IMG/VR virus record: IMGVR_UViG_3300046519_000252
Length of the DNA stretch: 64,000 nucleotides
Source of the DNA: an uncultured virus (IMG/VR IMGVR_UViG_3300046519_000252)
Lineage: Duplodnaviria; Heunggongvirae; Uroviricota; Caudoviricetes
Strand: one strand, 5' to 3'
Position numbers and translations under genes: made by a program. Position 1 is the stretch's first letter, and every line of letters starts with the position of its first letter. The notes beneath the pieces are model-generated. The model was not told the origin of the DNA. It did not search any database and saw nothing but the letters and a program-made list of their open reading frames with translations. Positions 30,413 to 64,000 of the stretch are shown here, piece by piece.

Positions 30413-30679
30413 ATGAGCCTCATAGACGATCTGGTGAGCATCGAATCCCGGCGCGGTACCTATCCCGGGCCGCAGTGCACCGTCGCAAAGATCATGGGAC
30501 AGATCAGCGAAGACGACCGCGCCCAGTTGTGCCGGGTCCTGGACAACCCCGACGTCCCCGGGTCTGTCATCGCCGGGGCTCTTACCCGCAACGGGTATCC
30601 CGTCGCCGACAAAACGGTTCTGCGCCATCGCAAGCGTGGTACGTCCTCCGGCTGCCACTGCCCCAAGGAAGACGCGTGA
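30413..30679 (+). CDS. Small hypothetical protein (C...RHR...C.C)
   Basis: GTGA-coupled to the phosphoesterase gene. Confidence 0.7.
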   Translation: MSLIDDLVSIESRRGTYPGPQCTVAKIMGQISEDDRAQLCRVLDNPDVPGSVIAGALTRNGYPVADKTVLRHRKRGTSSGCHCPKEDA

Positions 30680-32940
30680 GCAGCGGTCTCTCCGGCGACC
30701 TGGAGGCCTTACTGCGCCTCCCCGTCGGTCAAGCGGGACCCTCCAGCACCGGACACGTCCCCACAGCCGCTGTCGGCCGGGAATGGCAGCCCGGAGTCGC
30801 ATTCAACGCTGACGGGGCCATGACCGTCGTCACCGCCCCCACCACGACCAGCCCGCAAGACCCCCAGGCCTGGAAAGCTGCCGTCGAAGAACTCGGCCTC
30901 GCAGTCCCCGAAGGCTGGACCGTCCAGCTTGCCGAAGCCAAGTACGATCCAGCCGCCTGGCACCGGGACGCCCAGGGCGAAGAAGCCGTCACCCGGCCGG
31001 TATGGCGGCTGAAGTTCCGGGTTGCTCCGTCCTCTCTGGCCGGGTACGGCGCGGAGGATGTCGCGACGATGGTTCGGGACGCCATGCGCATCAAACGCAC
31101 CCCACGGCCCCCTGTAGCCCCGTCTCGGGGCCTTGTAGTCGCCTACTCCGACCCCCAGACCGGGAAGGCCCTGGCGGACACCACGCCGATCCTCACAGAC
31201 CGTGGGTGGATCACGCATGGCGAAGTCAAGCCTGGAGACAGCGTGTTCGGCCCGGATGGAACCCTGAAGAGGGTTTTGGCAGTCACCGGGTCCACGGTCC
31301 AGCAGGGCCACCGAGTGGTCTTTGACAAGGACACGGAGATCATCGCCACAGGTGACCATCTGTGGCAGGGATACCGGTTCTACCGGGTAGGCGGTTCGAG
31401 GAGCGGCGGATTCCAGAGGGAACGCCGGTCTCTCCTGTGGACCACAGAGCAGATCGCAGCCATACCCATGCAGCGGGGAGGGTCTGGGATTCCGACTCCG
31501 ATAAGGAGTTTCCATGTGGATCTCCCGGAATCTCTTCAGATGCCGGACGCTGACCTGCCCGTTGATCCCTACCTGTTCGGGGTATGGGTTGGGGACGGAG
31601 TCAGTGCTCGGGGTTCCTATGTGGGGGCACCGGAGGACGTGGCGGTCATCCAGACCTTCACGGGCGGCTACCAGGTAGAAGGCGGATCCCGGCCGGACGT
31701 CGCGTACATCCAGGTGCCGGGTCTGAAGCAGGGTCTGCGGGCACTGGGCGCGCTGGGCAACAAGCACATCCCGGCGGTGTACCTGGAAAGTTCTGCGGAC
31801 CAGCGACTCGCATTGCTCCAGGGTCTGATGGACACAGATGGAACGTGTTCCAAGGGACTGGCGGAGTTCACGACAACGCTCCCTGACGTAGCGGAGTCGG
31901 TGCGATGGTTGGTCTCTTCCCTGGGTATGAAGGCGAAGACGTTTCGTCGGGACCCCATAGGTTTGGGTAAGAAGGAGGTCTTCCGTATCTCCTTCCGGCC
32001 GGACCGCCCGGTCTTCCGTCTCCACCGGAAGCTGGCTCGCCAGTCTCCGGTGGATCCCGGTAACCAGGCCCGGTACCGTCAGGTACAGCGCGTAGAGCCT
32101 GTGGGTGAGGTCTCGGCACAGTGTCTGACCGTGGAAGGTGGCCTGTATCTCGCGGGTCGGGACATGGTGATCACGCATAACTGTGACCGCAGGGGCGGTA
32201 CTCCGGAACTGATCGCCCGCATCGCGGAGAAGTTCGACCGGCTCCAGGACCACGTCAGAGACCTCAAGACCCTCGGCCGTCCGGTGGACTCCGCCTACTG
32301 GATGGATGCCGGGGACTGCGTCGAAGGTCAGCAGAACGTCGCCTCGCAGCTTGCCACGAACGATCTGACCATGACGGAAATGGTCCGGCTGCACCGCAGG
32401 CTGACGTTCGATGGACTGTCTCGGCTGGCCCGGCAGTTCGACTCCGTAACGGCTGCGGTGTGCGCGTCCAACCACGCCCAGCACCGCATCAACGGCAAGG
32501 TCGTCGGACCGCCGTCCGACGACTGGGGCATCGAGACGATGCAGCAGGTTGCCGACGCCTTCAACTGCAACCCGGACTCCTTCGGTCACGTCAAGTTCAT
32601 CCTGCCTGAGAAATGGGAGGAGACCGTGAGCGTGGACGTCGCCGGAACAGTCGTAGGTCTTTCCCACGGTCACCAGGTGCGTGGTCCCGGCAAGGTTGTG
32701 GACTGGTGGCGCGGCCAGACGTTCGGAGAGCAGCCGGTAGCCGCCGCGAAAATCCTTCTGACCGGGCATTTCCACCACTTCCGGGCGGAAGAGGTCGGCT
32801 CCGGCAAGCTGTGGGTACAAGCCCCGGCCCTGGACAACGGGTCTTCCTGGTACGCCAATCGCACCGGCGACGACTCCCGGGCGGGTCTGCTGGTGTTCTC
32901 CGTAGGTGCGGACGGCTGGTCCGACCTTGTCATTCTCTGA
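30676..32940 (+). CDS. Calcineurin-like metallophosphoesterase containing an intein
   Basis: SDPQTGK / GDCVEG / SNH / HGH / GHFHH motifs reconstituted across the intein. Confidence 0.8.
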   Translation: MSSGLSGDLEALLRLPVGQAGPSSTGHVPTAAVGREWQPGVAFNADGAMTVVTAPTTTSPQDPQAWKAAVEELGLAVPEGWTVQLAEAKYDPAAWHRDAQGEEAVTRPVWRLKFRVAPSSLAGYGAEDVATMVRDAMRIKRTPRPPVAPSRGLVVAYSDPQTGKALADTTPILTDRGWITHGEVKPGDSVFGPDGTLKRVLAVTGSTVQQGHRVVFDKDTEIIATGDHLWQGYRFYRVGGSRSGGFQRERRSLLWTTEQIAAIPMQRGGSGIPTPIRSFHVDLPESLQMPDADLPVDPYLFGVWVGDGVSARGSYVGAPEDVAVIQTFTGGYQVEGGSRPDVAYIQVPGLKQGLRALGALGNKHIPAVYLESSADQRLALLQGLMDTDGTCSKGLAEFTTTLPDVAESVRWLVSSLGMKAKTFRRDPIGLGKKEVFRISFRPDRPVFRLHRKLARQSPVDPGNQARYRQVQRVEPVGEVSAQCLTVEGGLYLAGRDMVITHNCDRRGGTPELIARIAEKFDRLQDHVRDLKTLGRPVDSAYWMDAGDCVEGQQNVASQLATNDLTMTEMVRLHRRLTFDGLSRLARQFDSVTAAVCASNHAQHRINGKVVGPPSDDWGIETMQQVADAFNCNPDSFGHVKFILPEKWEETVSVDVAGTVVGLSHGHQVRGPGKVVDWWRGQTFGEQPVAAAKILLTGHFHHFRAEEVGSGKLWVQAPALDNGSSWYANRTGDDSRAGLLVFSVGADGWSDLVIL
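31168..32181 (+). mobile_element. Intein (338 aa, Ala1, class-3 signature) with LAGLIDADG endonuclease
   Basis: K|AL...; block B HLW; block F QCLTV; block G ITHN|C; LLQGLMDTDG. Confidence 0.85.
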
Positions 32941-32954
32941 GAGGGGTATCCGCT

Positions 32955-33284
32955 GTGTCTCATGACGACGCTGAATCCGAGGGCGAAGAGCTGGCGCTCC
33001 CTCCGGGGATGCTGCCCCTGATCCAGATCCAGGAACCGGAGGGCGACGCACTTCGGTGGACCCCCACCACGTTCTTGATTGACCTGTTCATGGCGTTCGC
33101 CGGGGTGCTGGAAGCCATCGCCGGTTTCTACGGAGACCAGGCACGCTCCCTCGCCGCGCGGGCCTCCCTCAAGGAAGAGCTGAAGGACCGGGACATCCGG
33201 CAGCGCATCAAGACGGAGGAACGTCTCCGGATGCAGCTGCACACCCTGGAGGACATCTCGTACTTACCCGAGGCCCAAGAGTGA
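32955..33284 (+). CDS. Hypothetical protein
   Basis: GAGGGG RBS before GTG. Confidence 0.55.
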   Translation: MSHDDAESEGEELALPPGMLPLIQIQEPEGDALRWTPTTFLIDLFMAFAGVLEAIAGFYGDQARSLAARASLKEELKDRDIRQRIKTEERLRMQLHTLEDISYLPEAQE

Positions 33285-33458: not shown

Positions 33459-36206
33459 GTGGCGCGTAACGCATGGGCGGACAGACTCGCCACGCTCTAC
33501 GAATTACAGGCGAAAAAGGACTCCCACCGGAACCCCGCCGTATGGGTAAACGACATCCTCGGCGAAGACATGTGGTCCATGCAGACCGCCATTTGCGAGA
33601 GTGTCCGGGACCACCGATTCACAGCCGTGCAAAGCTGTCACGCTGCGGGGAAGATGCTCTATTCTGGAAGCATGCTTCCCACCCCGTACGGCTGGCTTCG
33701 CATGGGCGACGCCAGGACCGGCGACATCGTGCTGGACGAATCCGGCAAACCCACCAAAATCACCGGGATATCTCCGCTCTGGACCCGGATGTTCTACCGG
33801 GTCACCTTCGATGACGGAACCTACGTCGACGCAGGCGACACCCACGAGTGGAACGTCATCGACCTGCGCCACCGGCCCCGCAAGGTGGCGGACTGGCGCG
33901 ACCACTGGGACGCGGCAGTCACCGTGGAGACCCGGCACATGGCGGAGAACCTGCGGGAGAACGGCCAACTGCGCTGGCGCATCCCGCTCGCCGCACCCCT
34001 CCAGTTTCCGGAGCGGGACCTGCTGATCGACCCGTACGTCCTGGGTGTATGGCTCGGAGACGGCGACTCCGACCGGGCCAGCATCACCATCGGCGAGGAC
34101 AAGCTCAAGATCGTGGATGAGCTGATCGCCGCAGGGGAGACGCCCCGGGTCTACCCGTACCCGGACACCCCCGGGCGCTACCGGGTGGCCCTCCCGGACG
34201 GCCTGCTGGGCAAGCTGCGCGGCCTTGCCGTGCTGGGCAACAAGCACATCCCCATGGCGTACCTGCGGGCCTCTGAGAGCCAGCGGCGGGCGCTGCTGGC
34301 CGGTCTGCTGGACACGGACGGCTTCATGGCCAGGGGTCCCGGAGACTCCCGGGTCGGAATCGACCTGACGAACAAGGCCCTTGCCCAGGGTGTGCGGGAA
34401 CTGCTGGTCAGCCTCGGCATCAAGGTCGGCTGGTCCGAGGGCGAAGCCGGTTACACCAAGAACGGTGTACGGAAGACGACCGGTACCCGGTACCGGATGA
34501 ACTTCCGGCCCTTGTCCAACCCGTTCCGGGTGCGCGGGCAGGGCTGGGCGGACACCACCACGCAGCGGTCCCGGGTCACTCAGCGGACCGTCGTGTCGGT
34601 GGAGCCGATCGGGGAGCAGACCAGTTTCTGCATCGAGGTGGACTCGCCGCGTCACCTGTACCTGGCGGGGGAGGGCATGGTGCCCACTCACAACAGTCAC
34701 CTTGCCTCCCGCCTCTCAGCCTGGTGGATCGCCACCACACCCATGGAAGAAGTCTTCCTCGTCACCACGGCGCCCACCGCCCGTCAGGTGGCCTCCATCC
34801 TCTGGCGCTATATCCAGCGCGCCCACAACCTCGCCAAAGAGCGCGGATTCACCATCCCCGGCCAGATCCTCTCCTCGCCGATCCCGTCCTGGAAAATCAA
34901 CGGTGAACTAGTCGGCATCGGGCAGAAGCCGCCGGACAAGGAAGACTCGGCCTTCCAGGGTTTCCACGCCGAAAAGATCCTCGTTGTCATCGACGAAGCG
35001 TGCGGCGTCGACCGGTCCATCTGGGACGCCGTGGACTCCCTCGTCACCAACGAGTCGTCCCGGGTCCTCGCCATCGGGAACCCCACCGACCCCGCGTCAC
35101 ACTTCCGGCAGGTGTGCTCCCCTGAGTCCCCGCTAGGCGAGAAATGGAACAAGATCCGCATCGACGCCCTGCGGTCCCCGCTGATGACCGAAGAGGCCTG
35201 CTCCCGGTACCCCCGCCTGGTGGAGTACATGAAGGAGGAAGGGATCCCCTTCGCCACCGAAGAGGTCTCCCCGACGCTCCAGAAGACGCTGGTGGGCCCG
35301 ACCTGGGTCTATGAATCCATGGTGGGCTGGGGCAAAGACTCCAGCCTGTTCAAGTCCAAAGTGCGGGCCGAGTTCCCCGAAACGTCCTCCGAGGGCGTTA
35401 TCCCGCTGGCCTGGGCAGAAGCCGCCATGGCCCGGTGGGAGAAATGGCGGGACGGGACCTACATCATCGACCCGGACACCGAAGAACCCGTGTGCCTGAT
35501 CGAACCGCGCGCCCAGCAGATCGGCGAGATCGTCATCGGTGCGGACATCTCCGACGGCGGCGAGGATGAGACAGTCGCCGCGATCCGGCAGGGCGAGGTG
35601 ATCCGTGAACTGATCGCGTTCCCCTCCAAGGACCCGCTGACCACCGCAGACGACCTCCAGGTGATCGCGGCCAAGCACGGGGCCCCGACGAACGCCAAGT
35701 ACATCGTGGACGGTATCGGCGTCGGCTCCGGTGTCGTGGCCAAGCTGCGCCGGGACTCCCAGGACACGTACGCGTTCATCGCGGCGGCCAACAGCGGTCG
35801 CAAGGACACCACCCAGAAAATGTCGTTCATCAACGACAGGGCGGCGGCCTGGTGGAACCTGCGCGAGATTCTGAACCCGGCCCGTAAGGGCGGCGCTGTT
35901 GCCGCGTTCCCCCGGGACGACAAGCTGCTTGCGGAACTGACCTGCCCCCGGTTCGACACACAGCCCGGTACCCCGAAGTACAAAATCGAGAAGAAGGAAG
36001 ACATCAGAACCCGGCTGGGGCGGTCGACCGACCGGGCAGACGCCGTGATTCAGGCGTTCTGGCTGCCTTCTGCGGTACCGGGCCCTGAGGAATTGAAGGA
36101 CAACGCCTGGAAGGCTTCCGAGGAACGCTACATCGGCAACGATGATTCAGAGGCCGTGGTGGAAAAGTGGGATACGGCCTCGGATATGGAACTCTCAGGC
36201 TGGTAA
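33459..36206 (+). CDS. terL: Terminase large subunit containing an intein
   Basis: Walker A SCHAAGK|S, TAPT..Q, Walker B VVIDEA, GNP, nuclease IGADIS..G.D and DRADA. Confidence 0.9.
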   Translation: MARNAWADRLATLYELQAKKDSHRNPAVWVNDILGEDMWSMQTAICESVRDHRFTAVQSCHAAGKMLYSGSMLPTPYGWLRMGDARTGDIVLDESGKPTKITGISPLWTRMFYRVTFDDGTYVDAGDTHEWNVIDLRHRPRKVADWRDHWDAAVTVETRHMAENLRENGQLRWRIPLAAPLQFPERDLLIDPYVLGVWLGDGDSDRASITIGEDKLKIVDELIAAGETPRVYPYPDTPGRYRVALPDGLLGKLRGLAVLGNKHIPMAYLRASESQRRALLAGLLDTDGFMARGPGDSRVGIDLTNKALAQGVRELLVSLGIKVGWSEGEAGYTKNGVRKTTGTRYRMNFRPLSNPFRVRGQGWADTTTQRSRVTQRTVVSVEPIGEQTSFCIEVDSPRHLYLAGEGMVPTHNSHLASRLSAWWIATTPMEEVFLVTTAPTARQVASILWRYIQRAHNLAKERGFTIPGQILSSPIPSWKINGELVGIGQKPPDKEDSAFQGFHAEKILVVIDEACGVDRSIWDAVDSLVTNESSRVLAIGNPTDPASHFRQVCSPESPLGEKWNKIRIDALRSPLMTEEACSRYPRLVEYMKEEGIPFATEEVSPTLQKTLVGPTWVYESMVGWGKDSSLFKSKVRAEFPETSSEGVIPLAWAEAAMARWEKWRDGTYIIDPDTEEPVCLIEPRAQQIGEIVIGADISDGGEDETVAAIRQGEVIRELIAFPSKDPLTTADDLQVIAAKHGAPTNAKYIVDGIGVGSGVVAKLRRDSQDTYAFIAAANSGRKDTTQKMSFINDRAAAWWNLREILNPARKGGAVAAFPRDDKLLAELTCPRFDTQPGTPKYKIEKKEDIRTRLGRSTDRADAVIQAFWLPSAVPGPEELKDNAWKASEERYIGNDDSEAVVEKWDTASDMELSGW
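33654..34694 (+). mobile_element. Intein (347 aa, Met1, class-3 signature) with LAGLIDADG endonuclease in the TerL P-loop
   Basis: GK|ML...; HEW; FCIEV; VPTHN|S; LLAGLLDTDG. Confidence 0.85.
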
Positions 36207-36263: not shown

Positions 36264-37820
36264 GTGGCGGATGAGCAGTTAAATGGCAGCGACCTGCCTG
36301 CGGGCAGCGCGCTTGCCAATTATGCCTCGGACTACCTGAACAAACCCCTGACCAAGACCGTCAACGGCGCCCCTGATGTAATCCTGGACGCCGAAGAAGG
36401 CAGCCTCTACACCTGGGCCGACTCCCTCGCCGCATCGTGGTCCGGCATACCCGGACGCATCCTCCTCGACGAGAATGAATTCGAAAGCCTCTCGTTCGAT
36501 GAAATGCTCAGCCGGGACGGCAAGGCCCGCACCATTCAGCAGGTGCTCACCCTGCCCATCCGCTCCGCCCCGTGGAAAATCCTTCCGGGTCCCGGAGACA
36601 GCGGAGAGGCCGCCTTCGTACAGGCCGCGCTGACCAAGCCCGCCAACCAGGGGGGTATGAAGACCCCGATGCGGCTGCTCATCGCCCAGGCACTGTCCGC
36701 GCGCACGAACCGGAAAGCCTGTTTCGAGAAGGTCTTCACCGAACGGGACGGCAAGATCGTCTACGAGCGCCTCGCGTTCCGGCCCTCCCCGACGACAGCC
36801 ATCGCCCGCGACCCGAAGACAGGGGCTTTCCGGGGGTTCCGGCAGCGCCCCGTAGCTGTGGGCGGTGAGATCTGGCCGGACATCTGGATCGACATCCCCG
36901 CGCAGTACTCCTGGGTGCACCTGAACAACCAGCACATCAACGCCGCGCGCGGGCACTCCGACATGGAACTGATCTACTGGCTGCACGACAAGAAGCAGAA
37001 AGTGCTGTTCCTTTGGGCGACGTTCCTGGAGGCGAACGCGCTCGGCCGCTACGTGGTGCAGGCTGAGGATGAGACTCGGGCCAAGCAGTACGCACAGGCC
37101 CTGCGGTACGTCAAAAACGGCGGTGTCCTCGGCACTTCCAATGAGATCAAGGTAGAAACCCTGGAGCTGGGCACCGGTGCGGCCGGGCTGTTCAAGGACT
37201 TCATCGACTACCTGGACAACCAGATGGCGGCCTCGGTCCTCGCGGGGTTCACCAACCTCCCGGACAGTCCCGGCGGTTCCTACGCGCTGTCCAAAGACCA
37301 GTCCGACTTCTTCCTCCAGTCCCTCACAGGTACCGCCAAGGAGCTGGCAGAGTCCATCACGAACTACGTGATCGCCGACCTGGTGATGTACAACTACGGG
37401 CCGAAGGGCGTTTGCCCGACCTTTGAGTTCGGTCCGCTGTCTGAGGGCGACTTGGAGACGGTCAAGGCGCTGCTGCTCGGATTCGGCACAACGCCGACGG
37501 AACTCCGGGTGCCGCAGGCATTCATGACCGAGCTGACCAAGATGATGGGCACCTATCTTGACATGCCCATGGATGAGGTCAACAAGGAATTCCAGCAGCT
37601 GGAAGAGCGCATCGACCAGCGAATGGACCTGGAGCTGGAGACAAAGAAGGCCGGTCTCGATGCCCAGAAGCAGATGGCCGCGCAGGGTGGTCCTCAGGCC
37701 GGAGCTGCGGTAGGCGCCGCGAATCAGCAGAAAAAAGCTGAGATGGCGAAGGCCGGGGCCAAGATCAACAAGGCTGCACAGATGGTCAAGCAAAAGGCCG
37801 CAGCCGCCAAGGGCAAATAA
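36264..37820 (+). CDS. Portal protein (Mu gp29/DUF935-like)
   Basis: Follows terL; FIDYLD.QM...VLAG...GGSYAL motif. Confidence 0.85.
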   Translation: MADEQLNGSDLPAGSALANYASDYLNKPLTKTVNGAPDVILDAEEGSLYTWADSLAASWSGIPGRILLDENEFESLSFDEMLSRDGKARTIQQVLTLPIRSAPWKILPGPGDSGEAAFVQAALTKPANQGGMKTPMRLLIAQALSARTNRKACFEKVFTERDGKIVYERLAFRPSPTTAIARDPKTGAFRGFRQRPVAVGGEIWPDIWIDIPAQYSWVHLNNQHINAARGHSDMELIYWLHDKKQKVLFLWATFLEANALGRYVVQAEDETRAKQYAQALRYVKNGGVLGTSNEIKVETLELGTGAAGLFKDFIDYLDNQMAASVLAGFTNLPDSPGGSYALSKDQSDFFLQSLTGTAKELAESITNYVIADLVMYNYGPKGVCPTFEFGPLSEGDLETVKALLLGFGTTPTELRVPQAFMTELTKMMGTYLDMPMDEVNKEFQQLEERIDQRMDLELETKKAGLDAQKQMAAQGGPQAGAAVGAANQQKKAEMAKAGAKINKAAQMVKQKAAAAKGK

Positions 37821-38619: not shown

Positions 38620-38943
38620 ATGGCTACCGCCTTAACTGTCCTTTCTGCCTCCAATGGTGGCCTGTCCACCTTTACCACCGTCGCAGCGGACACCACCGGG
38701 AACACGTTCTCGAATGACGGCCGCACCTGGCTGTTCATCGACGGGGGCGCCGCCGGTGGCACGCTCATCGTGAAGTCCAACGCCATTCTCCCCACGGGCC
38801 TGGTCGTTCCGGACAAGACGTACACCATCGCCGCGACCACCACGTACCTCCTCGACCCGTCGGACTTTCCGTACGTCGTCACCGGCGACACCGTGAAGGT
38901 CACCGCGTCCGTCACCACGATCAAGCTCGCCGCGTTCCACTAA
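38620..38943 (+). CDS. Small putative virion protein
   Basis: AAGGAG RBS; beta-rich; G..F.NDGR segment. Confidence 0.65.
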   Translation: MATALTVLSASNGGLSTFTTVAADTTGNTFSNDGRTWLFIDGGAAGGTLIVKSNAILPTGLVVPDKTYTIAATTTYLLDPSDFPYVVTGDTVKVTASVTTIKLAAFH

Positions 38944-38972: not shown

Positions 38973-40139
38973 ATGAGTGCAGAGACTGGGGCGTTAGCGA
39001 CCACCCCGCATCCGTTAGGAAAGCCGAACGGACCGGGTCTTTTCGGAAACAAGTCGTTGAGCCTCCCGCCGTATGTGCAAAACGTGGCCCAGAGCCTTAT
39101 GGAGAAGCGCGGGATGGATCGCTCCCGGGCAATCGCCACGGCCATCGGAGTCATGAAGAACTGGGCATCCGGGCAGGGGAAGGTGCACCCCGAGGTCCGT
39201 GCTGCGGCAGGCGCGGCCCTGGCGGAGTGGGAAGCCGCAAAAATGAAGGCCCACGCCACCCCCAACAAGGGCGCTGTGAGCCTGTCCCAGCCGATGACTC
39301 TCCTGCGCTCCATCCTGGACGGCTCCACTGCGGTGGAACTGGCGCAGACCGCCACAGAGCCCTCAGGAGGCCCGAAGCCCGCCAAGGCCCCGGCCAAGCA
39401 GGACAAGAAGGCCCAGCAAGACCAGCAGCAGACCAAGCACCAGCTGCCTCCGGGCGCTACAGGCTGGAAGCATGGGTGGATTCCTGTCGATTCGTCCGGA
39501 AAAGCTGTCGGTCCATCGCAGATGAACAAGTCTGCGCAGGAGATCAAGGACATGACGGGCCACGACCAGGCCACCAAGGACGCGATCGCCTCCGCGTACC
39601 ACAACAAGTCAGTTGCTGACGGCAAGAAAGCCGCCACAAAGGCCAAGTCCGCCAAGAAGAAGGCGGACGCCGCCGCCAAGCATGCCGCAAAGGCCAAGAC
39701 CGCAGCCGCCAAGAAGGCGCTCCGGGCCAAGGTAGTCGCCGCGAAGAAGGCTGCGGTGGCTGCCAAGAGGAATGCCGCAGCTATCGCGAAAAACAAGGCT
39801 GCGAAGACGAAGGCCCGTCAGAAGCTGGTCACTCAGGCCACCCGGCAGGCGCTCGCGGACAAGAAGGCGGGCCGGTCGCTGACGCCGTCACAGGTCCGGC
39901 TGCTGGACGCGTACAACTCTCAGCAGGCCTCGCAGCTGGACAACCTGCGTAACAACGTGTCGCTGTCTCAGCCGGTTGGCGGGGAATCCCAGGTCACTGT
40001 CCCTACGGGTTCTTCGCAGGACGGCCCTCGTAGCACGGTAAACAGCCTGCTCTCCTCGGTTCCGAAGCGGAAGCTCGCGGATGCCGCGCTGAAGGCTCAG
40101 AAGACGCGGCGTGATCGCCGCAGGAAGGGCGGGAAGTGA
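38973..40139 (+). CDS. K/A-rich putative internal head protein
   Basis: LP.Y...VA..L...G...SRAIA.A N-domain; KHGWIP motif; histone-like AAKK tract. Confidence 0.7.
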   Translation: MSAETGALATTPHPLGKPNGPGLFGNKSLSLPPYVQNVAQSLMEKRGMDRSRAIATAIGVMKNWASGQGKVHPEVRAAAGAALAEWEAAKMKAHATPNKGAVSLSQPMTLLRSILDGSTAVELAQTATEPSGGPKPAKAPAKQDKKAQQDQQQTKHQLPPGATGWKHGWIPVDSSGKAVGPSQMNKSAQEIKDMTGHDQATKDAIASAYHNKSVADGKKAATKAKSAKKKADAAAKHAAKAKTAAAKKALRAKVVAAKKAAVAAKRNAAAIAKNKAAKTKARQKLVTQATRQALADKKAGRSLTPSQVRLLDAYNSQQASQLDNLRNNVSLSQPVGGESQVTVPTGSSQDGPRSTVNSLLSSVPKRKLADAALKAQKTRRDRRRKGGK

Positions 40140-53778: not shown

Positions 53779-53788
53779 GGTAATCACC

Positions 53789-54040: not shown

Positions 54041-54184
54041 ATAGCCTGCCGTCGACAACCGTGATCCGGGTCTTTATACTTGCCACTGGCAGGCTTTTAA
54101 GGTCCGGGCGTAAGGCCGAATTGCCGTAATCACGGGCCAAGAAAACGCCCCTCCCTGACGAAACGGGGAGGGCTATCGAAGGAA

Positions 54185-54778: not shown

Positions 54779-54833
54779 GCGGCGCGTCCCCTTCCAAGTT
54801 CTACTCACCCGGCACAGCGAGAAAGGTTTCACC

Positions 54834-55429: not shown

Positions 55430-55584
55430 AAGACTCGCCGTGCCGGGTGGAGATCGTAGGGTCGGGGCTGTAAAAGGCTCCGACCCTACGAGCGTTTTAG
55501 ACTCTGGCTAATCGCCCCTTTTAGCAGGTAATCTTGGAATCTGCAACGCAATGCGGGTCAAGGGGATGATGAGAGGGAGCGCCA

Positions 55585-58500
55585 GTGTCCGGAACGTATT
55601 CGGCCGGAGACATCGAAGCCTCCCTCAAGTTAGACCGGTCTGACTTCAACCGGGAACTCACGCAGGCCAAGCGGGATGCCGAGGATTTCCAGAGTCAGAA
55701 GTACTCCCCGAAGGTTTCTCTGGATGACACCGAGGCCAAGGCGAAAATCCAGTCGCTCAAGCAGGAACTCCAGAGTCTTCACAACATCACGGTCAGTGCC
55801 GCGTTATCAGGGTTTGACGGGGTCACTACGCAGTTAGCAGCCCTCCAGGCGCAAGCCGACCACCTGAATGGCATGGTCATCACGATCCGTGCCGATGTGG
55901 ACACGTCCGCAGCTGCAAGAGGCCTGATCTGGTTAGACGAGTCGATCACGGCAATGAACACCCGGAGTATCAACATCCACGCGGATGTTGATACTCGCGT
56001 TGCTGCGGCATCCCTGGCGGCTCTGAGAGCGGCGGCGGCGGATCCGATCACCATTCGTACCCGTACGGACGGGGATAATCCCACCCCCGATCCGGGGGTG
56101 CCCGGCGAACCCGGCGACCGCAACCGGAACCGGAGAATCGGCGGTGGGGACGGCAACAGCGCGCTCTTTTCCAAGCTGTTCAGCCTCCCGGGGCTCATCG
56201 CCGCCGTGGCCCCTCAGATTCCCGCGCTCACCACACTGCTTGGGGGCGCTACCGCAGCTGTTACTTCCTTCGGTGTCGCGGCCGGTGGTGCTCTCGGTAT
56301 CTACGGGGCCGCCACGATGGGTGCTGTCAAGCAGGCGACAGCGCACGAGAAAGCCGTCCAGTCGACCGACAAGGCCCTCCAGGCGGCCCAGGCCCGGCTT
56401 GCTGGAACCACGGCCGGTACGACGGCGTACAAGAACGCCCTGAAGGCTGCTACGGAGGCGGAGAAGGCCCACAAGAAGGCTCTGGACGACCTCACGCCGT
56501 CGGAGAAGTTGTTCACGGACTCCCTGAACAACACTCAGACCGCCTGGAAGCAGTTCATCGGGGCTACCGAGGCCTACACCCTCCTGCCGGTCAGCACGGT
56601 GCTTCAGGGAGTCACCGCAGCTCTGCCCAAGTTCATTCCCCTGGTCAAGGACTTGGCGCCGGTTGTACAGGGTGTCGCGGTCAGCCTGAAGGAGTGGATG
56701 TCGGGTGACGGGCTGGTCCGGTTCGTCGACTTCCTGCGTACCTATGGCGTGCCGATCGTCAAGAACACGATCGAGGGGTTCAAGGGCTTTCTGACGGCGG
56801 GTGGGGCGATCATCCGGGCGTTCGGTCCGTGGGCCGAAAAGATGTCCGAGTTCTTCAAGCACATCGGAGAAGAGGCGGACAAGTGGGGCCGGAACGGGGG
56901 ACCGGAGCGCTTCAAGGACAGCGTCAAGCGGGCGTGGGTCCAGGTTGAGCCGATCCTGACCGGGCTATGGAAACTCGCCAGGCATGTGTGGGACGTTCTC
57001 AACGGAACCGGGCAAAGCAACGGCTCCGCTTTGGCGAATGTGATCAGTGGCGTCGGTACGGCCGTCGGCACCGTCAAGCCCGCAGCGGTCAAGGCCTTCA
57101 CCGAGATCTTCACGTCTATCTCTGACGTTGCTGTGCAGCTGGCACCCGTTATCGGGATCACATCCAAAGCCATCGTGGACATCATCAACGTGCTGCCTCC
57201 CGGCACGATCCGGGCCATCGCAGACGCCATGATCGCGTGGAAGCTGGCTATGCTCGGCTGGAGCGCCGCTGTCGCTATATGGACGGGTCTGACCGTCGTA
57301 TTCGGTTTGGCGATGGACGCCTGGCTCCTGTTGAGTCTTGCTTTCGCACTGTCCCCGCTCGGGGTCATCATCACAGGTGTTGTCCTGCTTATCGGCGTCA
57401 TTGTCCTGATCGCCACAAAAACCACGTGGTTCCAGACAATTTGGAAATACACCTGGAATGCGATCAAGGTTGCCTGGGACTACACCTGGAGCGCCATCAA
57501 GACCGCGTTCAGTGCCACGGTCGAATTCTTGCGTGGCAAGTTCGGACTGCTTGCCCTGCTGCTTGGCCCTATCGGCGCCATCGCCTGGATTGCTGCGAAC
57601 TGGCAGAAGGTCTGGGGCGTCATCAAGGGCGTCTGGAACGACATAGTTGCAGGCGCTCTGTGGCTGTGGGGCTACATCAAACCGGTGTTTCACGGAATCG
57701 CGGTCGCCTTCGAAACAATGGCCATGATCTTTTGGAAGGTGCATGTCACCATCATCAAGGTCGTGTTCATCCTGCTGGAAGCAGCCGTCAAGGCGCTCTG
57801 GGTGTTCGTCCTCAAGCCGGTGTTCGGGTGGATCGCCGCAGGCTGGCACGCCCTGGGTGACGGCATCATGTGGGTCTGGCATCACGTCATCAAGGCCGCC
57901 TGGGACCAAGTTGCAGCAGGGGCGGGCTGGGTGTGGACACACGGGATCAAGCCTGCGATTGGAAAGATCACGGATGCCTGGCACGCCATGGGCGACGGCG
58001 TCATGTGGGTCTGGCGTCACCTGATCAAACCGGCTTTCGATCTGGTGGCCGGGGGCTCCACCACCTTGTGGAAGAACCACATCTCGCCGTCCTTCGACGG
58101 GATCAAGGCCACCATCAGCTCAAAGTGGGATTGGCTCAAGAAGTGGGTCTTCAGCCCGATGGGGACGTTCTTCACCAAGATCATCCCTGGATGGGCCGAT
58201 CTGATGAAGGGCAAGCTGATCACGGCCTTCGACACAGCCTGGAAGGGCATTCAGAAGGTCTGGGACAACGTCAAAAAGGCGATCGGTTCGCCTATTTACC
58301 TGGTGGCCAAATACGTCTGGAATGATGCGATTTACGGCATCATGAACAAGATCAGCGGATTCGTACACCAGAAGAACCCGCTCGGGAAAATTCCGCTGGA
58401 CAACATCCCGCACTTCGCAGCCGGTGGCCCGGTGCGCGGCGGCACCCCGGGCAAGGACTCGGTTCTGTCCATGCTGATGCCTGATGAACACGTCCTCACC

Positions 58501-60297
58501 CGCGAAGACGTGGCAGCCATGGGCGGACAGCAGGCAGTTGCCCGTTTCCGCTCCGCCCTGCACGGAGGAGCCCCGGTCCAAGGCGCCAACAACACCGGCT
58601 ACTTCGGCATCGGCGGCTGGATCGGTGATGCAGGTTCCGCCCTGGCCGGGACCGTCAGCAAGGGTCTGGGCGTGCTCAAGGACGCCGTCCTGGGCGCTGT
58701 GGGTGTCGTAGCCAACCCGCTCCTGAACGCGGCCGAAAAGACCGTCAACACGCTCATCCCGGCGGACGGCGGATGGCACAACCTGGCCAACGGGGCTATG
58801 AAGCAGCCCATTGAGTGGATCAAGAGCTTCATCAACAAGGAAGACAAGAAGGCGCAGAGCGTCGGGGGAGTCATCCCGGCCGGACAGCACCTCGCGATCA
58901 TCGACGCGGCACTGAAGGCCGCCGGTGCCCCGCCGCCCGGAACCAAGGAGCAGTGGGAAGCCGGGATGAACACGCTGATCCAGCGTGAGTCCGGGTGGAA
59001 CGCCTCCGCCATCAACAACTGGGACAGCAACGCGAAGGCAGGTCACCCGTCTCAGGGTCTGACGCAGACGATCCCGTCCACGTTCGCCGCGTATGTTCCG
59101 CCCGCGCTGCGGAGCCTGGGCATCCTCAACCCGATCGCCAACGTCGCGGCCTCCGTCCGCTACATCAAGTCCGTGTACGGCGGTATCCAGAACGTCCAGC
59201 AGGCGAACGCCAACAAGGCCCCCAAGGGCTACTGGACGGGTACCGACGGGGCGGCCCCGGGCCTTGCGTGGGTCGGTGAGAAGGGCCCCGAGCTGGTCGA
59301 GTTCCATGGCGGCGAGGTCGTTCACAACCACATCGACTCCGCGCGTATGGCGGCGACCGGCAGCCTGCCCGGCTACGCCTCCGGTACCAAGAAGCAGCGG
59401 GCCGCCGTCCGTCATGCCTACAACGAGCGGGACAACGACACGGACCGCCGTAACGCGGCCCAGAAGTCTTATAACGCGGCTCACACGAAGTACCTGAATG
59501 CCACCACGGTCAAGGAGCAGCAGGCCGCGCGCAAGGAAATGGACAAGTACGAGAAGCGGATCAACAACGCGAACAAGGAGATCGCGGCCGACAACAAGTT
59601 GATCAAGCTGAACGACAAGCGGTACAAGGATGCTTCGGCGGCGGTCCGCAAGGAGCGGGCGGACGCTGCGGCCCTGGAAGCCGCCCGCAAGAAGTCGCAG
59701 AACGCGCAGATCTCGGCAATCAGGACGGCGATCCAGAACAGGATCAACGCCGTGAAGGCCGAGATCGACGCAAAGATCCAGGTAGCTACCGATGCTCGTA
59801 ACGGCTACTACGACGCGGCGAAGCAGAGCGGGCAACTGACCAACCTGACGGGCAACCGGGCGGCCGGGTTCACCCAGCAGCTCCAGGCCAAGATCACGGC
59901 TATCAAGAACTTCCAGGCCAACTTGCACAAGCTGGCCACCCTTGGTCTGTCCCAGGGTGTTATCCAGCAGATCGCGGCAATGGGTCCGGACCAGGGTGGG
60001 GCGCTTGCTCAGTCGCTTGCCCGGACAACGACGGCAGCCGACGCGAAGGATCTGAACGCGAAATACGCGGAGCTGGACAAGGTCTCTGGACAGTACGCGG
60101 ATTCCGCTGCCAATGACGGGTTCGGGTTGAGCAAGCTCAAGGCAGAATCCGCTGTCCTGTCCAAGACGAAAATTACTGTTACAGCACCTCATACGATCAT
60201 GGTTACTATTGACGGAAAGACCTTCAAGGCCCACACGGAAGCGACCGTGGATGCGAAGGTGACCGAGATCGTAGCCGCTGCCGGAAAGAAGAAGTGA
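55585..60297 (+). CDS. Tape measure protein with lytic transglycosylase domain
   Basis: 1570 aa; W-periodic repeats; RESGWN..AINNWDSNA..G.PSQGL.Q.I..TF; WVGEKGPE. Confidence 0.9.
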   Translation: MSGTYSAGDIEASLKLDRSDFNRELTQAKRDAEDFQSQKYSPKVSLDDTEAKAKIQSLKQELQSLHNITVSAALSGFDGVTTQLAALQAQADHLNGMVITIRADVDTSAAARGLIWLDESITAMNTRSINIHADVDTRVAAASLAALRAAAADPITIRTRTDGDNPTPDPGVPGEPGDRNRNRRIGGGDGNSALFSKLFSLPGLIAAVAPQIPALTTLLGGATAAVTSFGVAAGGALGIYGAATMGAVKQATAHEKAVQSTDKALQAAQARLAGTTAGTTAYKNALKAATEAEKAHKKALDDLTPSEKLFTDSLNNTQTAWKQFIGATEAYTLLPVSTVLQGVTAALPKFIPLVKDLAPVVQGVAVSLKEWMSGDGLVRFVDFLRTYGVPIVKNTIEGFKGFLTAGGAIIRAFGPWAEKMSEFFKHIGEEADKWGRNGGPERFKDSVKRAWVQVEPILTGLWKLARHVWDVLNGTGQSNGSALANVISGVGTAVGTVKPAAVKAFTEIFTSISDVAVQLAPVIGITSKAIVDIINVLPPGTIRAIADAMIAWKLAMLGWSAAVAIWTGLTVVFGLAMDAWLLLSLAFALSPLGVIITGVVLLIGVIVLIATKTTWFQTIWKYTWNAIKVAWDYTWSAIKTAFSATVEFLRGKFGLLALLLGPIGAIAWIAANWQKVWGVIKGVWNDIVAGALWLWGYIKPVFHGIAVAFETMAMIFWKVHVTIIKVVFILLEAAVKALWVFVLKPVFGWIAAGWHALGDGIMWVWHHVIKAAWDQVAAGAGWVWTHGIKPAIGKITDAWHAMGDGVMWVWRHLIKPAFDLVAGGSTTLWKNHISPSFDGIKATISSKWDWLKKWVFSPMGTFFTKIIPGWADLMKGKLITAFDTAWKGIQKVWDNVKKAIGSPIYLVAKYVWNDAIYGIMNKISGFVHQKNPLGKIPLDNIPHFAAGGPVRGGTPGKDSVLSMLMPDEHVLTREDVAAMGGQQAVARFRSALHGGAPVQGANNTGYFGIGGWIGDAGSALAGTVSKGLGVLKDAVLGAVGVVANPLLNAAEKTVNTLIPADGGWHNLANGAMKQPIEWIKSFINKEDKKAQSVGGVIPAGQHLAIIDAALKAAGAPPPGTKEQWEAGMNTLIQRESGWNASAINNWDSNAKAGHPSQGLTQTIPSTFAAYVPPALRSLGILNPIANVAASVRYIKSVYGGIQNVQQANANKAPKGYWTGTDGAAPGLAWVGEKGPELVEFHGGEVVHNHIDSARMAATGSLPGYASGTKKQRAAVRHAYNERDNDTDRRNAAQKSYNAAHTKYLNATTVKEQQAARKEMDKYEKRINNANKEIAADNKLIKLNDKRYKDASAAVRKERADAAALEAARKKSQNAQISAIRTAIQNRINAVKAEIDAKIQVATDARNGYYDAAKQSGQLTNLTGNRAAGFTQQLQAKITAIKNFQANLHKLATLGLSQGVIQQIAAMGPDQGGALAQSLARTTTAADAKDLNAKYAELDKVSGQYADSAANDGFGLSKLKAESAVLSKTKITVTAPHTIMVTIDGKTFKAHTEATVDAKVTEIVAAAGKKK

Positions 60298-60298: not shown

Positions 60299-61627
60299 AT
60301 GCCGGTTGTAGTCCCTACCGGAGCCCCGGTCTCCTCTTCAACAACGGATTCCACCTCGTTCGACAGCCGTATCCGGGTTATCGACGACCCGGCTTTCGGC
60401 GGCGTCCGAATCAAGATCGATTACTCGCTGGACCTCAACTTATGGTCCAGCCCCTTCCAGTGCACGGTCTACCGGAAGCACGATGACGGCTCCGTGTACA
60501 CCGTGCGAGGGGGCGACCCCTACCTGAACTACACAGGCAAGGGCTGGCTGTATGACCAGGAAGCCCCTTTGGGCCAGCCCGTGTCCTACTACGTCGTCCC
60601 TGTCGACGCCGACGGCACCTCCGGTGTCCAGTCCGCCGCCGCCTCCATCATCACCGGGACGCCCGCCGGGGGCTTCAACGCGCCGGATATGTGGCTGGTC
60701 AATCTGGCCGACCCCAGCGCCTCCCTCCGGGTTCGCGGTACCAGCACGCTTTCCGGTAACTACAACGGACGCAGCGACAAACAGGTTGTCCTCGGCAGCC
60801 CCTACCCCACAGTGACCCCGGACACCCGGAACGGTCTGAGCACCCAGATAACCGTGCTCACGGTAGGAAAACAGGAGTTCCTTGCCATGCAGGAACTCCT
60901 GAAACAGAGCATCATCATGAGGAAGTCGTCATTATGGGAGCGCCCTGACGGCTATTTCACTGTAGACGATGTTTCTTACGCCTCACAGGCCGCCGCAACC
61001 GGTCGCGGCGTGTACGCGTGGCAGATGAGCCTCACCGAGGTAGGCCGCCCCAACACGTACGGGCAGACCGTGGCCAGCCCCTCCTTCACATTCAAGGCAT
61101 ACCAGGCTCAGTACCCGCTGTTCAGCGACGCCCCCGCACTGCCCTTCGATGCCATCCAGGGGGGCAACGTCATGGACCCCAACACGTCCAGCCTGGAAAC
61201 CGACGCCTCACAGTGGGTGGCAAACACCAACACGACGATCGCGTGGTCGGCAGCCCAGGCCAAGCAGGGCACGCACTCCCTGAAGATGACCGCCACAGCG
61301 GCGGGTGTTTTCGGAGCGTTCACGGGGCCGCGTTTCCCAGTGAACCCCAACAGCACGTACACCTTCACCGCGTGGCTGTACAGCCCGAACGGGCTGGTGG
61401 CAGACCTTCAGCTCGACTGGAAAGACGGCGCAGGCATCTACCTCTCCAGCGACTCCCTTGGCGAGTGGGGTCTGACCGTGGCCCTTACCCCGAACATCTG
61501 GACCAAGGTGATCCTGGCCGTCAAGCCGGTCCCCGGGTCTGCCCTGGTCACACCGCTGGTCCGCCTGACGGCGACAGCGGGAGGTCAGATCGGCTACGCG
61601 GATGCCATGACGCTGGAGAACATCTGA
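60299..61627 (+). CDS. Distal tail/minor tail protein with carbohydrate-binding-like C-domain
   Basis: D.EAPLG..V.Y; C-terminal beta-sandwich (N.S.E...W...G.HSL...YTF.AW). Confidence 0.7.
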   Translation: MPVVVPTGAPVSSSTTDSTSFDSRIRVIDDPAFGGVRIKIDYSLDLNLWSSPFQCTVYRKHDDGSVYTVRGGDPYLNYTGKGWLYDQEAPLGQPVSYYVVPVDADGTSGVQSAAASIITGTPAGGFNAPDMWLVNLADPSASLRVRGTSTLSGNYNGRSDKQVVLGSPYPTVTPDTRNGLSTQITVLTVGKQEFLAMQELLKQSIIMRKSSLWERPDGYFTVDDVSYASQAAATGRGVYAWQMSLTEVGRPNTYGQTVASPSFTFKAYQAQYPLFSDAPALPFDAIQGGNVMDPNTSSLETDASQWVANTNTTIAWSAAQAKQGTHSLKMTATAAGVFGAFTGPRFPVNPNSTYTFTAWLYSPNGLVADLQLDWKDGAGIYLSSDSLGEWGLTVALTPNIWTKVILAVKPVPGSALVTPLVRLTATAGGQIGYADAMTLENI

Positions 61628-62775
61628 TGCTCACTCACTCGGAACGCCTGGGACGGATGCTGGCCGACGGCACTCCGCTGAAGATCGAACCGGTACTGGA
61701 GTGGTCCCCGGACTGGGCCAACTGGTATCCGCTGGACATCCTTGGCGGCAGCCACACCCAGGACCGCACGAGTACCGTCCGGTGGACCATGAGCTGCACC
61801 GTGGCGAAGAACATCCCGGTGGGGTTCGACGGCATCCACCCCTATGGCTGCCGTCTCCGGCTCCAACTGGCTGTGTCCTTCCTGGGGTCGTCACCCGAAT
61901 ACATCCCCGCAGGCCTGTATTCGGTCACGTCGGTCACAGAGAACTTCAACAACCTGGGTATCGCAGGCTCCAGTTTCGAACAGGATGTCATCGACAGCAC
62001 GTTTCCCGTGGTCCGGAACCTGCCGGACAACCGCTCGATGACCTACCGCAGGCAAGCGGAAAAACTGATCTCCGAAGCTGTTCCGGACGCCCGGTACCTC
62101 TGGGATCCCCGGCTGTCCGCGAACGCCGCCATGACCTCCATGGCCGTAGACAGTGACCGCTGGTCGGTCATCCACGGGACCGCCAACGACGCATCTGTGG
62201 CCACAGCGCTCGGTGCGGACGCCCTCTGCGATGCTTCGGGAGCGTTCTCTTTCGTCCGGCGCCCTTCCCTCGCAGACGATCCTGTGTGGGCGGTTTCTGA
62301 GGACACGCAGACCAAGATCTCTTCGACGTTCGCCTACGACCGGCAGAACGTGTTCAACCTTGTCGTAGTCACCGGGACCCCTGCCGATGGCGGCAGTCCG
62401 GTCGGCCCCGTGTTCGTGTGGGACGACGATCCGTACTCCCCGACCTACGCAGGCCCGGATCCCGTGAACCATCCGGAACTCGCAGGGCACTTCGGAGTCA
62501 AGCCCTACCGGTACGACTCCCCGCTCATCACCAGCGACCGGCAGGCCTGGCAGGTCGGTCACGCAATCCTGGCCGACCTCGTAGGCGAATCCAAGACGGT
62601 GTCCTTTTCAGGCCGCTACAACCCCTGCCAGGAAGCCGGAGACGTCGTCCTGATCACCCGGGCGGACGGACAGCCGGAAGGCCACCTGGTGGACTCTCTC
62701 AGCTACACGTGGGCCTCGGGCGCCGCGTCCTACACCACGCGTAGTACCAAGCAGGAGGTCACCGTTCATGTCTGA
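61627..62775 (+). CDS. Baseplate hub/minor tail protein (DUF5047-like)
   Basis: PYG.RL...G.Y...DRW...N.VVV.G...FG.KP..Y.SPL. Confidence 0.75.
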   Translation: MLTHSERLGRMLADGTPLKIEPVLEWSPDWANWYPLDILGGSHTQDRTSTVRWTMSCTVAKNIPVGFDGIHPYGCRLRLQLAVSFLGSSPEYIPAGLYSVTSVTENFNNLGIAGSSFEQDVIDSTFPVVRNLPDNRSMTYRRQAEKLISEAVPDARYLWDPRLSANAAMTSMAVDSDRWSVIHGTANDASVATALGADALCDASGAFSFVRRPSLADDPVWAVSEDTQTKISSTFAYDRQNVFNLVVVTGTPADGGSPVGPVFVWDDDPYSPTYAGPDPVNHPELAGHFGVKPYRYDSPLITSDRQAWQVGHAILADLVGESKTVSFSGRYNPCQEAGDVVLITRADGQPEGHLVDSLSYTWASGAASYTTRSTKQEVTVHV

Positions 62776-63529
62776 GGCTGCGAACCTGCTGTCCAAACTC
62801 ACTCAAAACGACCGCGCCGTAAAAACGCTCCGAGCCACTGTCTCCTCCTACCGGGAAGACGGAACGGTCAACCTCAGCTACGGCACATCACGTATGTACG
62901 GGATCCCCTGCCTGGCCTCCTACACCGCGCGGGCTATCGGGGACGTGGTGCAGGTGCTGGACCTCGGCAACAGCGTCTGGGTGGTCCTGGGGCGTATCGG
63001 CGGGACCGACTCCGGGTTTGTCGGCCCCGCTGCCCAGAACAGCGGATACCAGCAGTACTACCTGGACACTCTGACCAGCCGGGGTACAACGGATATCGGG
63101 TACGAAGGCTATATAGGATCTTCCGGCGCCGACAAAGAGCGGCCCCTCATGCTGGCATGGTCCTACTACAACGGCTTTGCCAACACGATGAACCTCGCTT
63201 TCTCACCCAAGACCTCCGCAACGGTTTACGTCGCCCGCAGCAACCGGTTACACGGACAGCGGGAAGCGGTGGAAATGCGGCTCTGCCCGCACAACTACAA
63301 CACGCTTCCGAGCACCATCACACTGGATACAGCGTCTTTCAGTCCCGTCAATTTCCGGCTGGAAGTAGGGGAAGTACGAGCCATCCCCTTGCCCGCAGAC
63401 TGGTTTGCGGCAGCCGCCGCAGGCACCCCGACCATCAAGGGGTTCGCCGTCCAGCCCATCACGGTAAGCCCATCAACGTCGGGTTACGCGATTTTCAGTC
63501 CCACATCGGGCGGTTACCGCACGTTTTAA
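62768..63529 (+). CDS. Minor tail protein
   Basis: L.SY....GD.V.V...VLGRI; synteny. Confidence 0.65.
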   Translation: MSEAANLLSKLTQNDRAVKTLRATVSSYREDGTVNLSYGTSRMYGIPCLASYTARAIGDVVQVLDLGNSVWVVLGRIGGTDSGFVGPAAQNSGYQQYYLDTLTSRGTTDIGYEGYIGSSGADKERPLMLAWSYYNGFANTMNLAFSPKTSATVYVARSNRLHGQREAVEMRLCPHNYNTLPSTITLDTASFSPVNFRLEVGEVRAIPLPADWFAAAAAGTPTIKGFAVQPITVSPSTSGYAIFSPTSGGYRTF

Positions 63530-63564
63530 TCGGTATAGTTGTTCGACAGTAAAGGAGGGAATCC

Positions 63565-64000
63565 GTGGGAGCCACGTACAGCGCGTTTTCTGCACTTCCG
63601 GTGCCGGATACCGCAGCCAACAATGACGTCCCCTACTGGTTATCCCAGCTGGTAGCCGTCATGGATACCAAACTTCTGCTCACCGCCACCTCCACGACGG
63701 ACCGGGACAGCCGGTACTTCAACGCACCGTCAGGAGTGCTCTGCGTCGTCCGCGACGGCACTGGGGCGATTCTCGGCGTGTACGTGAAGACGTCCAACGC
63801 AGGGACGTCTGTCTGGGCTACTGTCTGGGCCGCCCCCGTTCCGCAAGTGCCGGTCAACATCCCCCTCTCGGACGGCGTGCAGGTAACGAACGGTAAACCG
63901 CCTGTTGCTGTTTACAACCCGGCGGTAAACACGTGGTCACTCTGGGGAAACGTCGCTTTCACCAACGGCACCAATATCCCGACCAACACCATTCTCGGAA
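63565..64000 (+). CDS. Minor tail/fibre protein, 3'-truncated by window edge
   Basis: AAGGAGG RBS, GTG start, open to the window end. Confidence 0.6.
   Translation, partial: MGATYSAFSALPVPDTAANNDVPYWLSQLVAVMDTKLLLTATSTTDRDSRYFNAPSGVLCVVRDGTGAILGVYVKTSNAGTSVWATVWAAPVPQVPVNIPLSDGVQVTNGKPPVAVYNPAVNTWSLWGNVAFTNGTNIPTNTILG

Follow-up and report, generated by a model that had tools for sequence, protein, structure and literature searches.

In-frame TTA codons at the starts of late genes in an uncultured rhizosphere phage: a conserved pattern consistent with late translation dependent on a host leucine tRNA

The control of Streptomyces regulators through TTA codons and the bldA transfer RNA (tRNA) is textbook knowledge. 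Here, this control and related systems are compared with the in-frame TTA codons found in the late genes of an uncultured tailed virus of the Caudoviricetes (IMG/VR record IMGVR_UViG_3300046519_000252), of which a stretch of 64,000 nucleotides was analysed as a whole (hereafter, the window). Statements from the literature refer to excerpts of the papers cited. In Streptomyces coelicolor, bldA is the only reader of UUA (PMC2000904), and the active bldA tRNA is reported to appear late (PMC10732093, PMC2000904). In several actinomycete genera, UUA is over-represented in the first 10% of genes (PMC13072593). The late genes of the window resemble the bldA/TTA regulon, with its adpA and pathway regulators, in that in-frame TTA is very rare, often lies at the 5' end and ties a set of genes to one tRNA; a further likeness is that growth-phase genes are free of TTA in the one system (PMC2000904, PMC10732093, PMC13072593) and genes outside the late set nearly so in the other. 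The targets differ, being about 15-20 virion and lysis genes and not a few regulators, in a phage known from sequence alone.

Phages and phage-like particles have already been linked to UUA. The production of phage-tail-like particles (SLP/eCIS) in S. coelicolor and S. lividans is tied to bldA via a 5' UUA, and there a single UUA in a LuxR-type regulator gates the transcription of the cluster (PMC8505568), whereas in the window the structural genes themselves bear the codon. UUA is said to be absent from most Streptomyces phages (PMC10732093), and the S. griseus phage JackieB has no TTA in the 15,592 codons of its 72 genes. Individual phage genes that contain UUA have been a subject of discussion (PMC10732093, PMC13350457, PMC2000904). 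In particular, the terminase gene of phiHau3/StrepC.1 has a UUA followed by a non-coding insert of 7-10 nt, UUA being present in 3 of 100 terminase genes (PMC10732093). The likeness to our case is that phiHau3 is a Streptomyces phage proposed to sense the state of the host by a UUA in an essential late gene (PMC10732093). The polarity is the opposite, as phiHau3 is proposed to bypass the UUA and grow lytically when the tRNA is missing (PMC10732093), while here a missing tRNA should block late proteins; moreover, the terminase and all other TTA-bearing genes described below are continuous open frames, and many genes are marked. For the S. avermitilis phage CW39 (49% G+C), TTA genes were counted and bldA dependence was speculated upon (PMC13350457); the nine genes are two HNH endonucleases and seven hypothetical genes, and the excerpts report no late or positional bias and no conservation (PMC13350457). 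A conserved, genome-wide marking of late genes by TTA was not described in the full-text literature searched, which did not cover Smith et al. 2013.

The window has a G+C content of 63%. Its left 30 kb hold small genes on both strands, and a co-directional block of late genes starts at 30.4 kb. The block opens with an exonuclease-like gene, followed by the large terminase, a Mu-type portal, a MuF-like gene, an 1839-aa protein, the scaffold, the capsid and a Mu gp36-like head-completion gene (52447-52902); more small genes without family match come next, and then the tape measure protein and the tail proteins. The 25 late genes contain 25 copies of TTA, the rarest leucine codon of the phage, in 9,707 codons, against 4 in the 9,007 codons of the 57 other genes (Fisher P=1.3e-4). 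Within the late genes the codons cluster at the start, with 11 among the 475 codons at positions 2-20 and 14 among the remaining 9,232 (P=8e-9). The original prediction, which proposed from the sequence of the window that 5' TTA codons gate virion production through bldA, had listed 22 late and 4 left-arm sites; all of them are in frame and in plausible genes, and the late list lacked three further sites, at 33264, 60932 and 63248. Start codons are supported by Shine-Dalgarno-like sequences and by N-termini conserved among relatives.

The same distribution recurs in the three long relatives that were compared whole, namely G001 (76 kb, the nearest record), G002 (125 kb, with a completeness of 97% by the tool's own figure) and G003 (89 kb). 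In G002, with the late-type class drawn by position and family matches, one HNH gene left out and one start corrected, 29 TTA are spread over 19 of the 33 genes of virion or lysis type (12,720 codons), with a single one in the 140 others (20,827 codons), the exception being a RyR-domain gene. Two of the TTA-bearing genes, a GH25 lysin and a pectate-lyase-like tailspike, lie outside the main block, and a TTA is also present in the holin gene, with which the block ends. G003 and G001 have 26 and 20 TTA, respectively, mostly at the same sites. Thus, as in the bldA/TTA regulon, the codon is concentrated in the putative targets and nearly missing from the other genes (25 versus 4 in the window; 19 of 33 versus 1 of 140 genes in G002).

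In the window, the early genes are accompanied by a motif, (G)CTAGGGTAGATA(C/T), present in about 20 copies that are always oriented with the downstream gene and stand just upstream of early genes. About 19 copies lie in the early region 1..30300 (for example, 8996-9010, 14034-14048 and 27991-28005), and one is in the late block (45677-45688), ahead of a TTA-free gene (45693-45911). The motif-driven early genes have no TTA, as originally noticed for those then inspected.

TTA could in principle be a by-product of selection on highly expressed late genes for mRNA starts that are A+T-rich and weakly folded. A general AT bias at the late 5' ends is real, as third-position G+C is only 0.70 over the first 20 late-gene codons, compared with 0.82 elsewhere; CAA, TCT, ACT and AAT are enriched 3-6-fold over the same stretch. 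The comparison with other AT-rich codons nonetheless singles out TTA. Among the 49 leucine codons at late positions 2-20, 11 are TTA, 2 TTG, 0 CTA, 4 CTT, 11 CTC and 21 CTG; ATA occurs once there and TTT twice, versus 12 TTC, and no 5' enrichment is seen for TTG, CTA or ATA. Under a null model in which synonymous choice is tilted by the number of A/T at codon positions 1 and 3, with the tilt fitted to the non-leucine codons of the bin, 2.9 TTA are expected where 11 are observed (P=6.5e-5), about four times the expectation, while TTG, CTT and CTA fall short of theirs. A second yardstick, TTG multiplied by the A:G ratio of the Lys, Glu and Gln codons, gives 1.25 expected TTA at the same positions (Poisson P=9e-8). 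The excess also depends on frame: the first 20 codons of late genes hold 11 TTA in frame and 2 + 2 in the other frames, those of non-late genes 0 in frame and 2 + 4 in the others. No shared nucleotide context was seen around the TTA sites. Given also that sites far from the start are conserved and that the positional conservation of TTA equals that of the major codon CTG, as detailed below, the by-product explanation is contradicted by the frame, model and conservation results, and we find it scarcely credible.

Conservation was assessed at conserved residues of 48 orthologue pairs between the window and G003, at a mean protein identity of 65%. The codon is kept at 12 of 17 TTA sites, compared with 1 of 14 for CTA, 4 of 41 for TTG, 7 of 56 for CTT and 235 of 331 for CTG; TTA thus differs sharply from the other minor leucine codons taken together (12 of 111; Fisher P=4e-7). 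The comparison with G002, at 82% identity, gives 15 of 19 for TTA and 50 of 159 for CTA, TTG and CTT. Across relatives at 60-95% identity, in site-by-relative cells that share ancestry and are not independent, TTA is kept in 188 of 249 and CTG in 2,205 of 2,919, the figures for TTG, CTA and CTT being 22%, 12% and 21%. In alignments of the 5' codons, TTA stays while neighbouring synonymous sites, and even residues, vary. TTA is therefore held in homologues by codon-level selection, and a generic ramp, in which all rare codons would behave alike and none would show conservation of its own, does not describe the data: TTA alone exceeds the model and is alone conserved among the minor leucine codons.

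The individual sites, all in genes on the plus strand, bear this out to different degrees. The large terminase (33459..36206) has its TTA at codon 16 (33504), kept in 8/8 distinct relatives despite variable flanking synonymous sites, and the 107-aa gene without family match (38620..38943) has one at codon 5 (38632), kept in 9/9. The Mu-type portal (36264..37820) has TTA at codon 6 (36279), kept in 6/7 relatives by tblastn mapping; TTA lies within the first 13 codons in 10/10 distinct relatives, although adjacent residues differ. The gene of the 1839-aa protein (40136..45655), which ends in an ADP-ribosyltransferase domain, carries TTA at codons 8, 14 and 36 (40157, 40175 and 40241), kept in 7/8, 6/8 and 5/8 distinct relatives, respectively. 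In the 388-aa gene without family match (38973..40139), for which the conserved N-terminus MSAETGAL places the start at ATG 38973, codon 8 (38994) is TTA in 8/11 and TTG in 3/11 relatives, and codon 15 (39015) is TTA in 3/11. A 542-aa gene (48985..50613) upstream of the scaffold and capsid, named a protease in the original prediction, matches no family; its TTA at codons 6, 8, 115 and 189 (49000, 49006, 49327 and 49549) are kept in 7/8, 6/11, 7/11 and 3/7 distinct relatives. The first late gene (30676..32940), previously called a phosphoesterase, matches instead an exonuclease family and has a LAGLIDADG intein-like insert; its codon 12 (30709) is TTA in 2/7 distinct relatives. The adjoining 109-aa gene (32955..33284) has TTA at codon 104 (33264), with TTA in 5/8.

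Further along the block, the tape measure protein of 1570 aa (55585..60297; SLT domain) has TTA at codons 16, 74, 84 and 117 (55630, 55804, 55834 and 55933), kept in 5/8, 5/7, 1/7 and 2/6, respectively. In agreement with what had been noticed, neither long gene has TTA beyond its 5' part, there being none after codon 36 in the 1839-aa gene and none after codon 117 in the 1570-aa gene. The major capsid protein gene (51154..52074) has TTA at codon 47 (51292; kept in 6/15 distinct relatives), the 197-aa gene at the position of the major tail protein (54185..54778) at codon 102 (54488; 1/10), and the 128-aa gene at the tail-chaperone position (54834..55220) at codon 62 (55017; 4/7). The tail protein formerly named Dit (60299..61627) has TTA at codons 48 and 212 (60440 and 60932), which are TTG and TTA, respectively, in G002. 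A 253-aa tail-region gene (62768..63529) has TTA at codon 161 (63248), replaced by CTC in G002, and the gene cut by the end of the window (63565..63999) has TTA at codon 26 (63640), kept in G002. On the left arm, the RyR-domain gene (13626..14012) has TTA at codon 25 (13698) and its G002 homologue at codon 19, so that this is the sole non-late gene type that keeps a TTA; the other sites are codon 90 (18418) of the gene 18151-18465 and codons 35 and 51 (18581 and 18629) of a papain-like amidase gene (18479-19045), codon 35 being kept in G003 and G001.

The best-kept sites are mostly at codons 5-16, and deeper ones, such as capsid codon 47 and codon 102 of the tail gene, are kept less often. Where a site is lost, another one may appear in the same gene. 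Indeed, the capsid gene of lineages L091-L093 has TTA at codon 17 in place of 47; the tail gene of G003 and L091-L093 has it at codon 33 in place of 102; the tape measure gene of G003 has lost codon 84 and has TTA at codons 62 and 87; and the exonuclease-like gene of G003 has TTA at codon 6 in place of 12. Such turnover within genes fits selection for having a TTA and not for one particular site. More distant capsid relatives (L096-L102, 31-43% identity) have 0-3 TTA and no 5' bias, and the trait is thus confined to the clade of the window.

If TTA is selected for, the question arises of which tRNA reads it. The only tRNA of the window called by ARAGORN is a tRNA-Leu with anticodon CAA (25367..25449, minus strand). 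G001, G002 and G003 have one convincing tRNA each, at the same locus and also Leu(CAA) (G001:51429-51504; G002:45897-45972; G003:35371-35453). No tRNA-Leu(UAA) was found by ARAGORN in the window or in these three genomes, including intron-aware and relaxed runs, the extra calls of which were implausible, lay inside genes and were in no case Leu(UAA). Rfam at its gathering threshold gave nothing in the window, the tRNA called by ARAGORN included. An inverted repeat upstream of the tRNA gene is present in a single copy. The body of the tRNA exists in two forms: that of the window and G003 is 83 nt long with a long variable arm, and that of G001 and G002 is 76 nt long with a variable loop of 5 nt. 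Anticodon CAA and discriminator A73 are constant across both forms. Under standard decoding, the anticodon CAA is limited to UUG, a codon that accounts for about 7% of leucine codons in the window versus about 1% in JackieB; this usage suffices to explain the presence of the tRNA. With a tRNA-Leu(UAA), both UUA and UUG would be served, and we infer that the phage, by retaining CAA, relies on the host for UUA. The situation resembles that of T4-type phages in that early and late codon use differ and the phage carries a tRNA, but it differs from it in that the sole tRNA, in the window as in G001-G003, is cognate to a codon other than the one in excess in late genes.

It could still be asked whether the phage tRNA reads UUA itself, through a change at C34 or as a near-cognate at high abundance, in which case TTA would be a phage-private late codon. 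In favour of this, the tRNA is the only one in a 125-kb genome that is 97% complete, it belongs to the UUR leucine box, and CAA and A73 are kept while the body switches between the 83-nt and 76-nt forms among close relatives. Against it stand the restriction of CAA to UUG expected by the standard rule, the TTG usage that already explains the tRNA, and the finding of no tRNA-modifying enzyme, the nearby deaminase being of the dCMP type; we judge self-reading quite improbable. The gene of this deaminase (22383-23066) had been taken up as a candidate editor of C34 and was rejected because it matches dCMP deaminase families. Phage Shady, taken from a blastn search of phages with the tRNA, was set aside as a parallel because the anticodon of its tRNA-Leu is UAG. 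Slightly less improbable, though still doubtful, is the idea that tRNA-Leu(CAA) and the late TTA codons work together as the two parts of a single device. In its weaker form, the tRNA may relieve the host reader of UUA and UUG of the UUG share, so that UUA alone reports the state of the host; in its radical form, an altered C34 or an excess of the tRNA may allow it to read UUA, making TTA phage-private and the tRNA a timer of the late programme. For the radical form, a candidate alteration of C34 would be one of the lysidine type.

Collectively, late specificity, 5' bias, excess over AT bias, codon-level selection and the lack of a detected phage tRNA reading UUA are the parts of the proposed bldA gate that hold, and together they fit translational dependence on a host tRNA. 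The reading that we prefer, with a rough probability of 0.55, is that late translation depends on the host tRNA-Leu(UAA) through a selected lock of TTA codons distributed over many genes. The locked set would comprise packaging, head and tail genes, and in relatives lysis genes too. As no phage tRNA reads UUA by the standard rule, Leu(CAA) serving UUG only, the rate of late protein synthesis would be set by the host tRNA-Leu(UAA). Judging from general ribosome footprint sizes, a ribosome paused at codons 5-16 would still be on or near the start region, where it would block new initiation, so that few ribosomes would be wasted. In a Streptomyces-like host, the reader would be the bldA tRNA, and particle production and lysis would be expected to track the growth or developmental state of the mycelium.

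Several observations weigh against a host-dependent lock. A gate needs a TTA in one essential gene only, and some 20 marked genes suit tuning gene by gene at least as well. The earliest TTAs are mostly in low-copy proteins (terminase, portal, 1839-aa protein and tape measure), and in the window TTA is missing from the scaffold gene and from the majority of the small head-to-tail genes (52126-54040), a distribution that suits a throttle of dosage. The avoidance of TTA by early genes depends on the yardstick, as 4 are observed where 17.6 are expected by the A:G ratio and about 2 by TTG x CTA/CTG. Two more points, taken up with the host below, are that all known members of the virus family come from rhizosphere and soil metagenomes and that a related contig has been binned with a genome titled Bacillota.

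The first two of these points bring in a constant dosage throttle, or ramp, in which a slow 5' codon fixes a low translation of few-copy proteins independently of the state of the host. Such a throttle would leave the same sequence pattern as the lock, and its serious standing comes from the occurrence of the earliest TTAs in low-copy proteins. It accounts well for TTA at codons 5-16 in terminase, portal, exonuclease-like gene, 1839-aa protein, 542-aa gene and tape measure, for the lack of TTA in the scaffold and for its appearance no earlier than codon 47 in the capsid gene and codon 102 in the tail gene; enrichment of rare codons at the 5' end is, moreover, general in actinomycete genes (PMC13072593). 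It accounts less well for the TTA at capsid codon 17 in L091-L093, for the lysis genes that carry the codon and for the retention of deep sites (542-aa gene codon 115, 7/11; tape measure codon 74, 5/7), and a ramp would employ many mildly rare codons, whereas TTA alone is enriched. On balance, we hold the throttle to be possible but unlikely.

The remaining points concern the host. The gene content of the virus is Streptomyces-like. The DUF2637 protein (19169-20386) matched 329 plasmid records at about 50% identity, 309 of them from Streptomyces and 9 from Kitasatospora. Of the 215 phage records matched by the C-terminal half of the G002 lysin, 124 are Streptomyces phages, and among the matches listed, 12 rows (9 distinct phages, including phiC31) are all Streptomyces phages. 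The best capsid and tail-protein matches are also Streptomyces phages; by capsid, the closest named phages infect Streptomyces griseus and S. scabiei, at about 39% identity, with no isolate relative nearer. The nearest TerD cluster is mostly of Actinomycetota. The best terminase match is a Microcystis phage at 41.8%, and no phage record, hence no near-identical phage, was matched by the terminase gene in a megablast search. The contig in question, L040 (15.9 kb, with a portal 83% identical to that of the window), was binned in a 4.1-Mb metagenome-assembled genome titled Bacillota, whose sampled loci have a G+C of 57-71%; it was the single genome-contig match in the prophage search, and the other contigs of that assembly did not match window 1-20000 or 40001-60000. 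Since no further contig matches these two stretches, L040 is weak evidence on the host either way, and its binning is probably an artefact.

These data also bear on a variant of the lock, in which it is real and the host is another high-G+C soil bacterium without a developmental tRNA, TTA reporting general tRNA supply or growth rate. The uncultured state of the virus, L040 in a Bacillota-titled assembly of similar G+C and the Microcystis phage match of the terminase speak for this variant; the Streptomyces plasmids and phages to which the DUF2637 protein, the lysin C-terminus, the capsid and the tail proteins point, the mostly actinomycetotal TerD cluster and the presence of only one phage-like contig in the assembly speak against it. 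It is rather unlikely in our view. A Streptomyces-like actinomycete is thus the putative host on the basis of gene content, and the bldA link is plausible.

As for the wider distribution of the virus, portals 37-100% identical to that of the window occur at 19 loci in IMG/VR and capsid relatives at 28. Near-identical DNA is present in rhizosphere metagenome runs, and all 24 of the 24 listed sequencing runs are rhizosphere or soil metagenomes, with no RNA run among them.

Other features of the window and its relatives are as follows. The late block is broken into by a gene of the DNA polymerase/primase family (45975-47819, minus strand) and by an HNH endonuclease gene (48340-48681, plus strand), both without TTA. 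Inserts of the LAGLIDADG/homing-endonuclease type, intein-like, are present in the terminase (915 aa) and in the exonuclease-like protein (754 aa), the G002 homologues of which are 567 and 416 aa long and without inserts. The domain at the C-terminus of the 1839-aa late protein (40136-45655) is of the ADP-ribosyltransferase exoenzyme type. The early region encodes an ADP-ribosylglycohydrolase and an adjoining hairpin protein of the Acb2/Tad1 type, an anti-CBASS/Thoeris family name (23095-24132 and 24210-24431, both on the minus strand). The sequence GTTCCGGTTC (and its complement) occurs in eight copies at 19241-19633, within the DUF2637 gene, as a short coding repeat. A promoter scan of 24-40 kb returned 1 site versus 2.2 expected. 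G002 has a tyrosine-integrase-like gene (G002:18289-19203, minus strand); the matching region of G001 has different DNA, no such integrase was found in G001, G003 or the other loci searched, and a metagenome scan with the G002 integrase gave no relative. A ParA-like ATPase is present in all lineages.

If the preferred reading, late translation dependent on a host tRNA-Leu(UAA), is true, a virus would have adopted a rare-codon control of its host and spread it over its entire late programme, and the decision to build particles and to lyse would be made at the ribosome and not at promoters alone. The virus would then offer a testable case for the proposed mutual shaping of UUA and phages in Streptomyces (PMC2000904, PMC10732093), and the 5' ends of its late genes would be natural cassettes for tRNA-gated expression. 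The dependence would also explain at which ages of the mycelium such phages are productive, which would make it relevant to phage contamination of fermentations.

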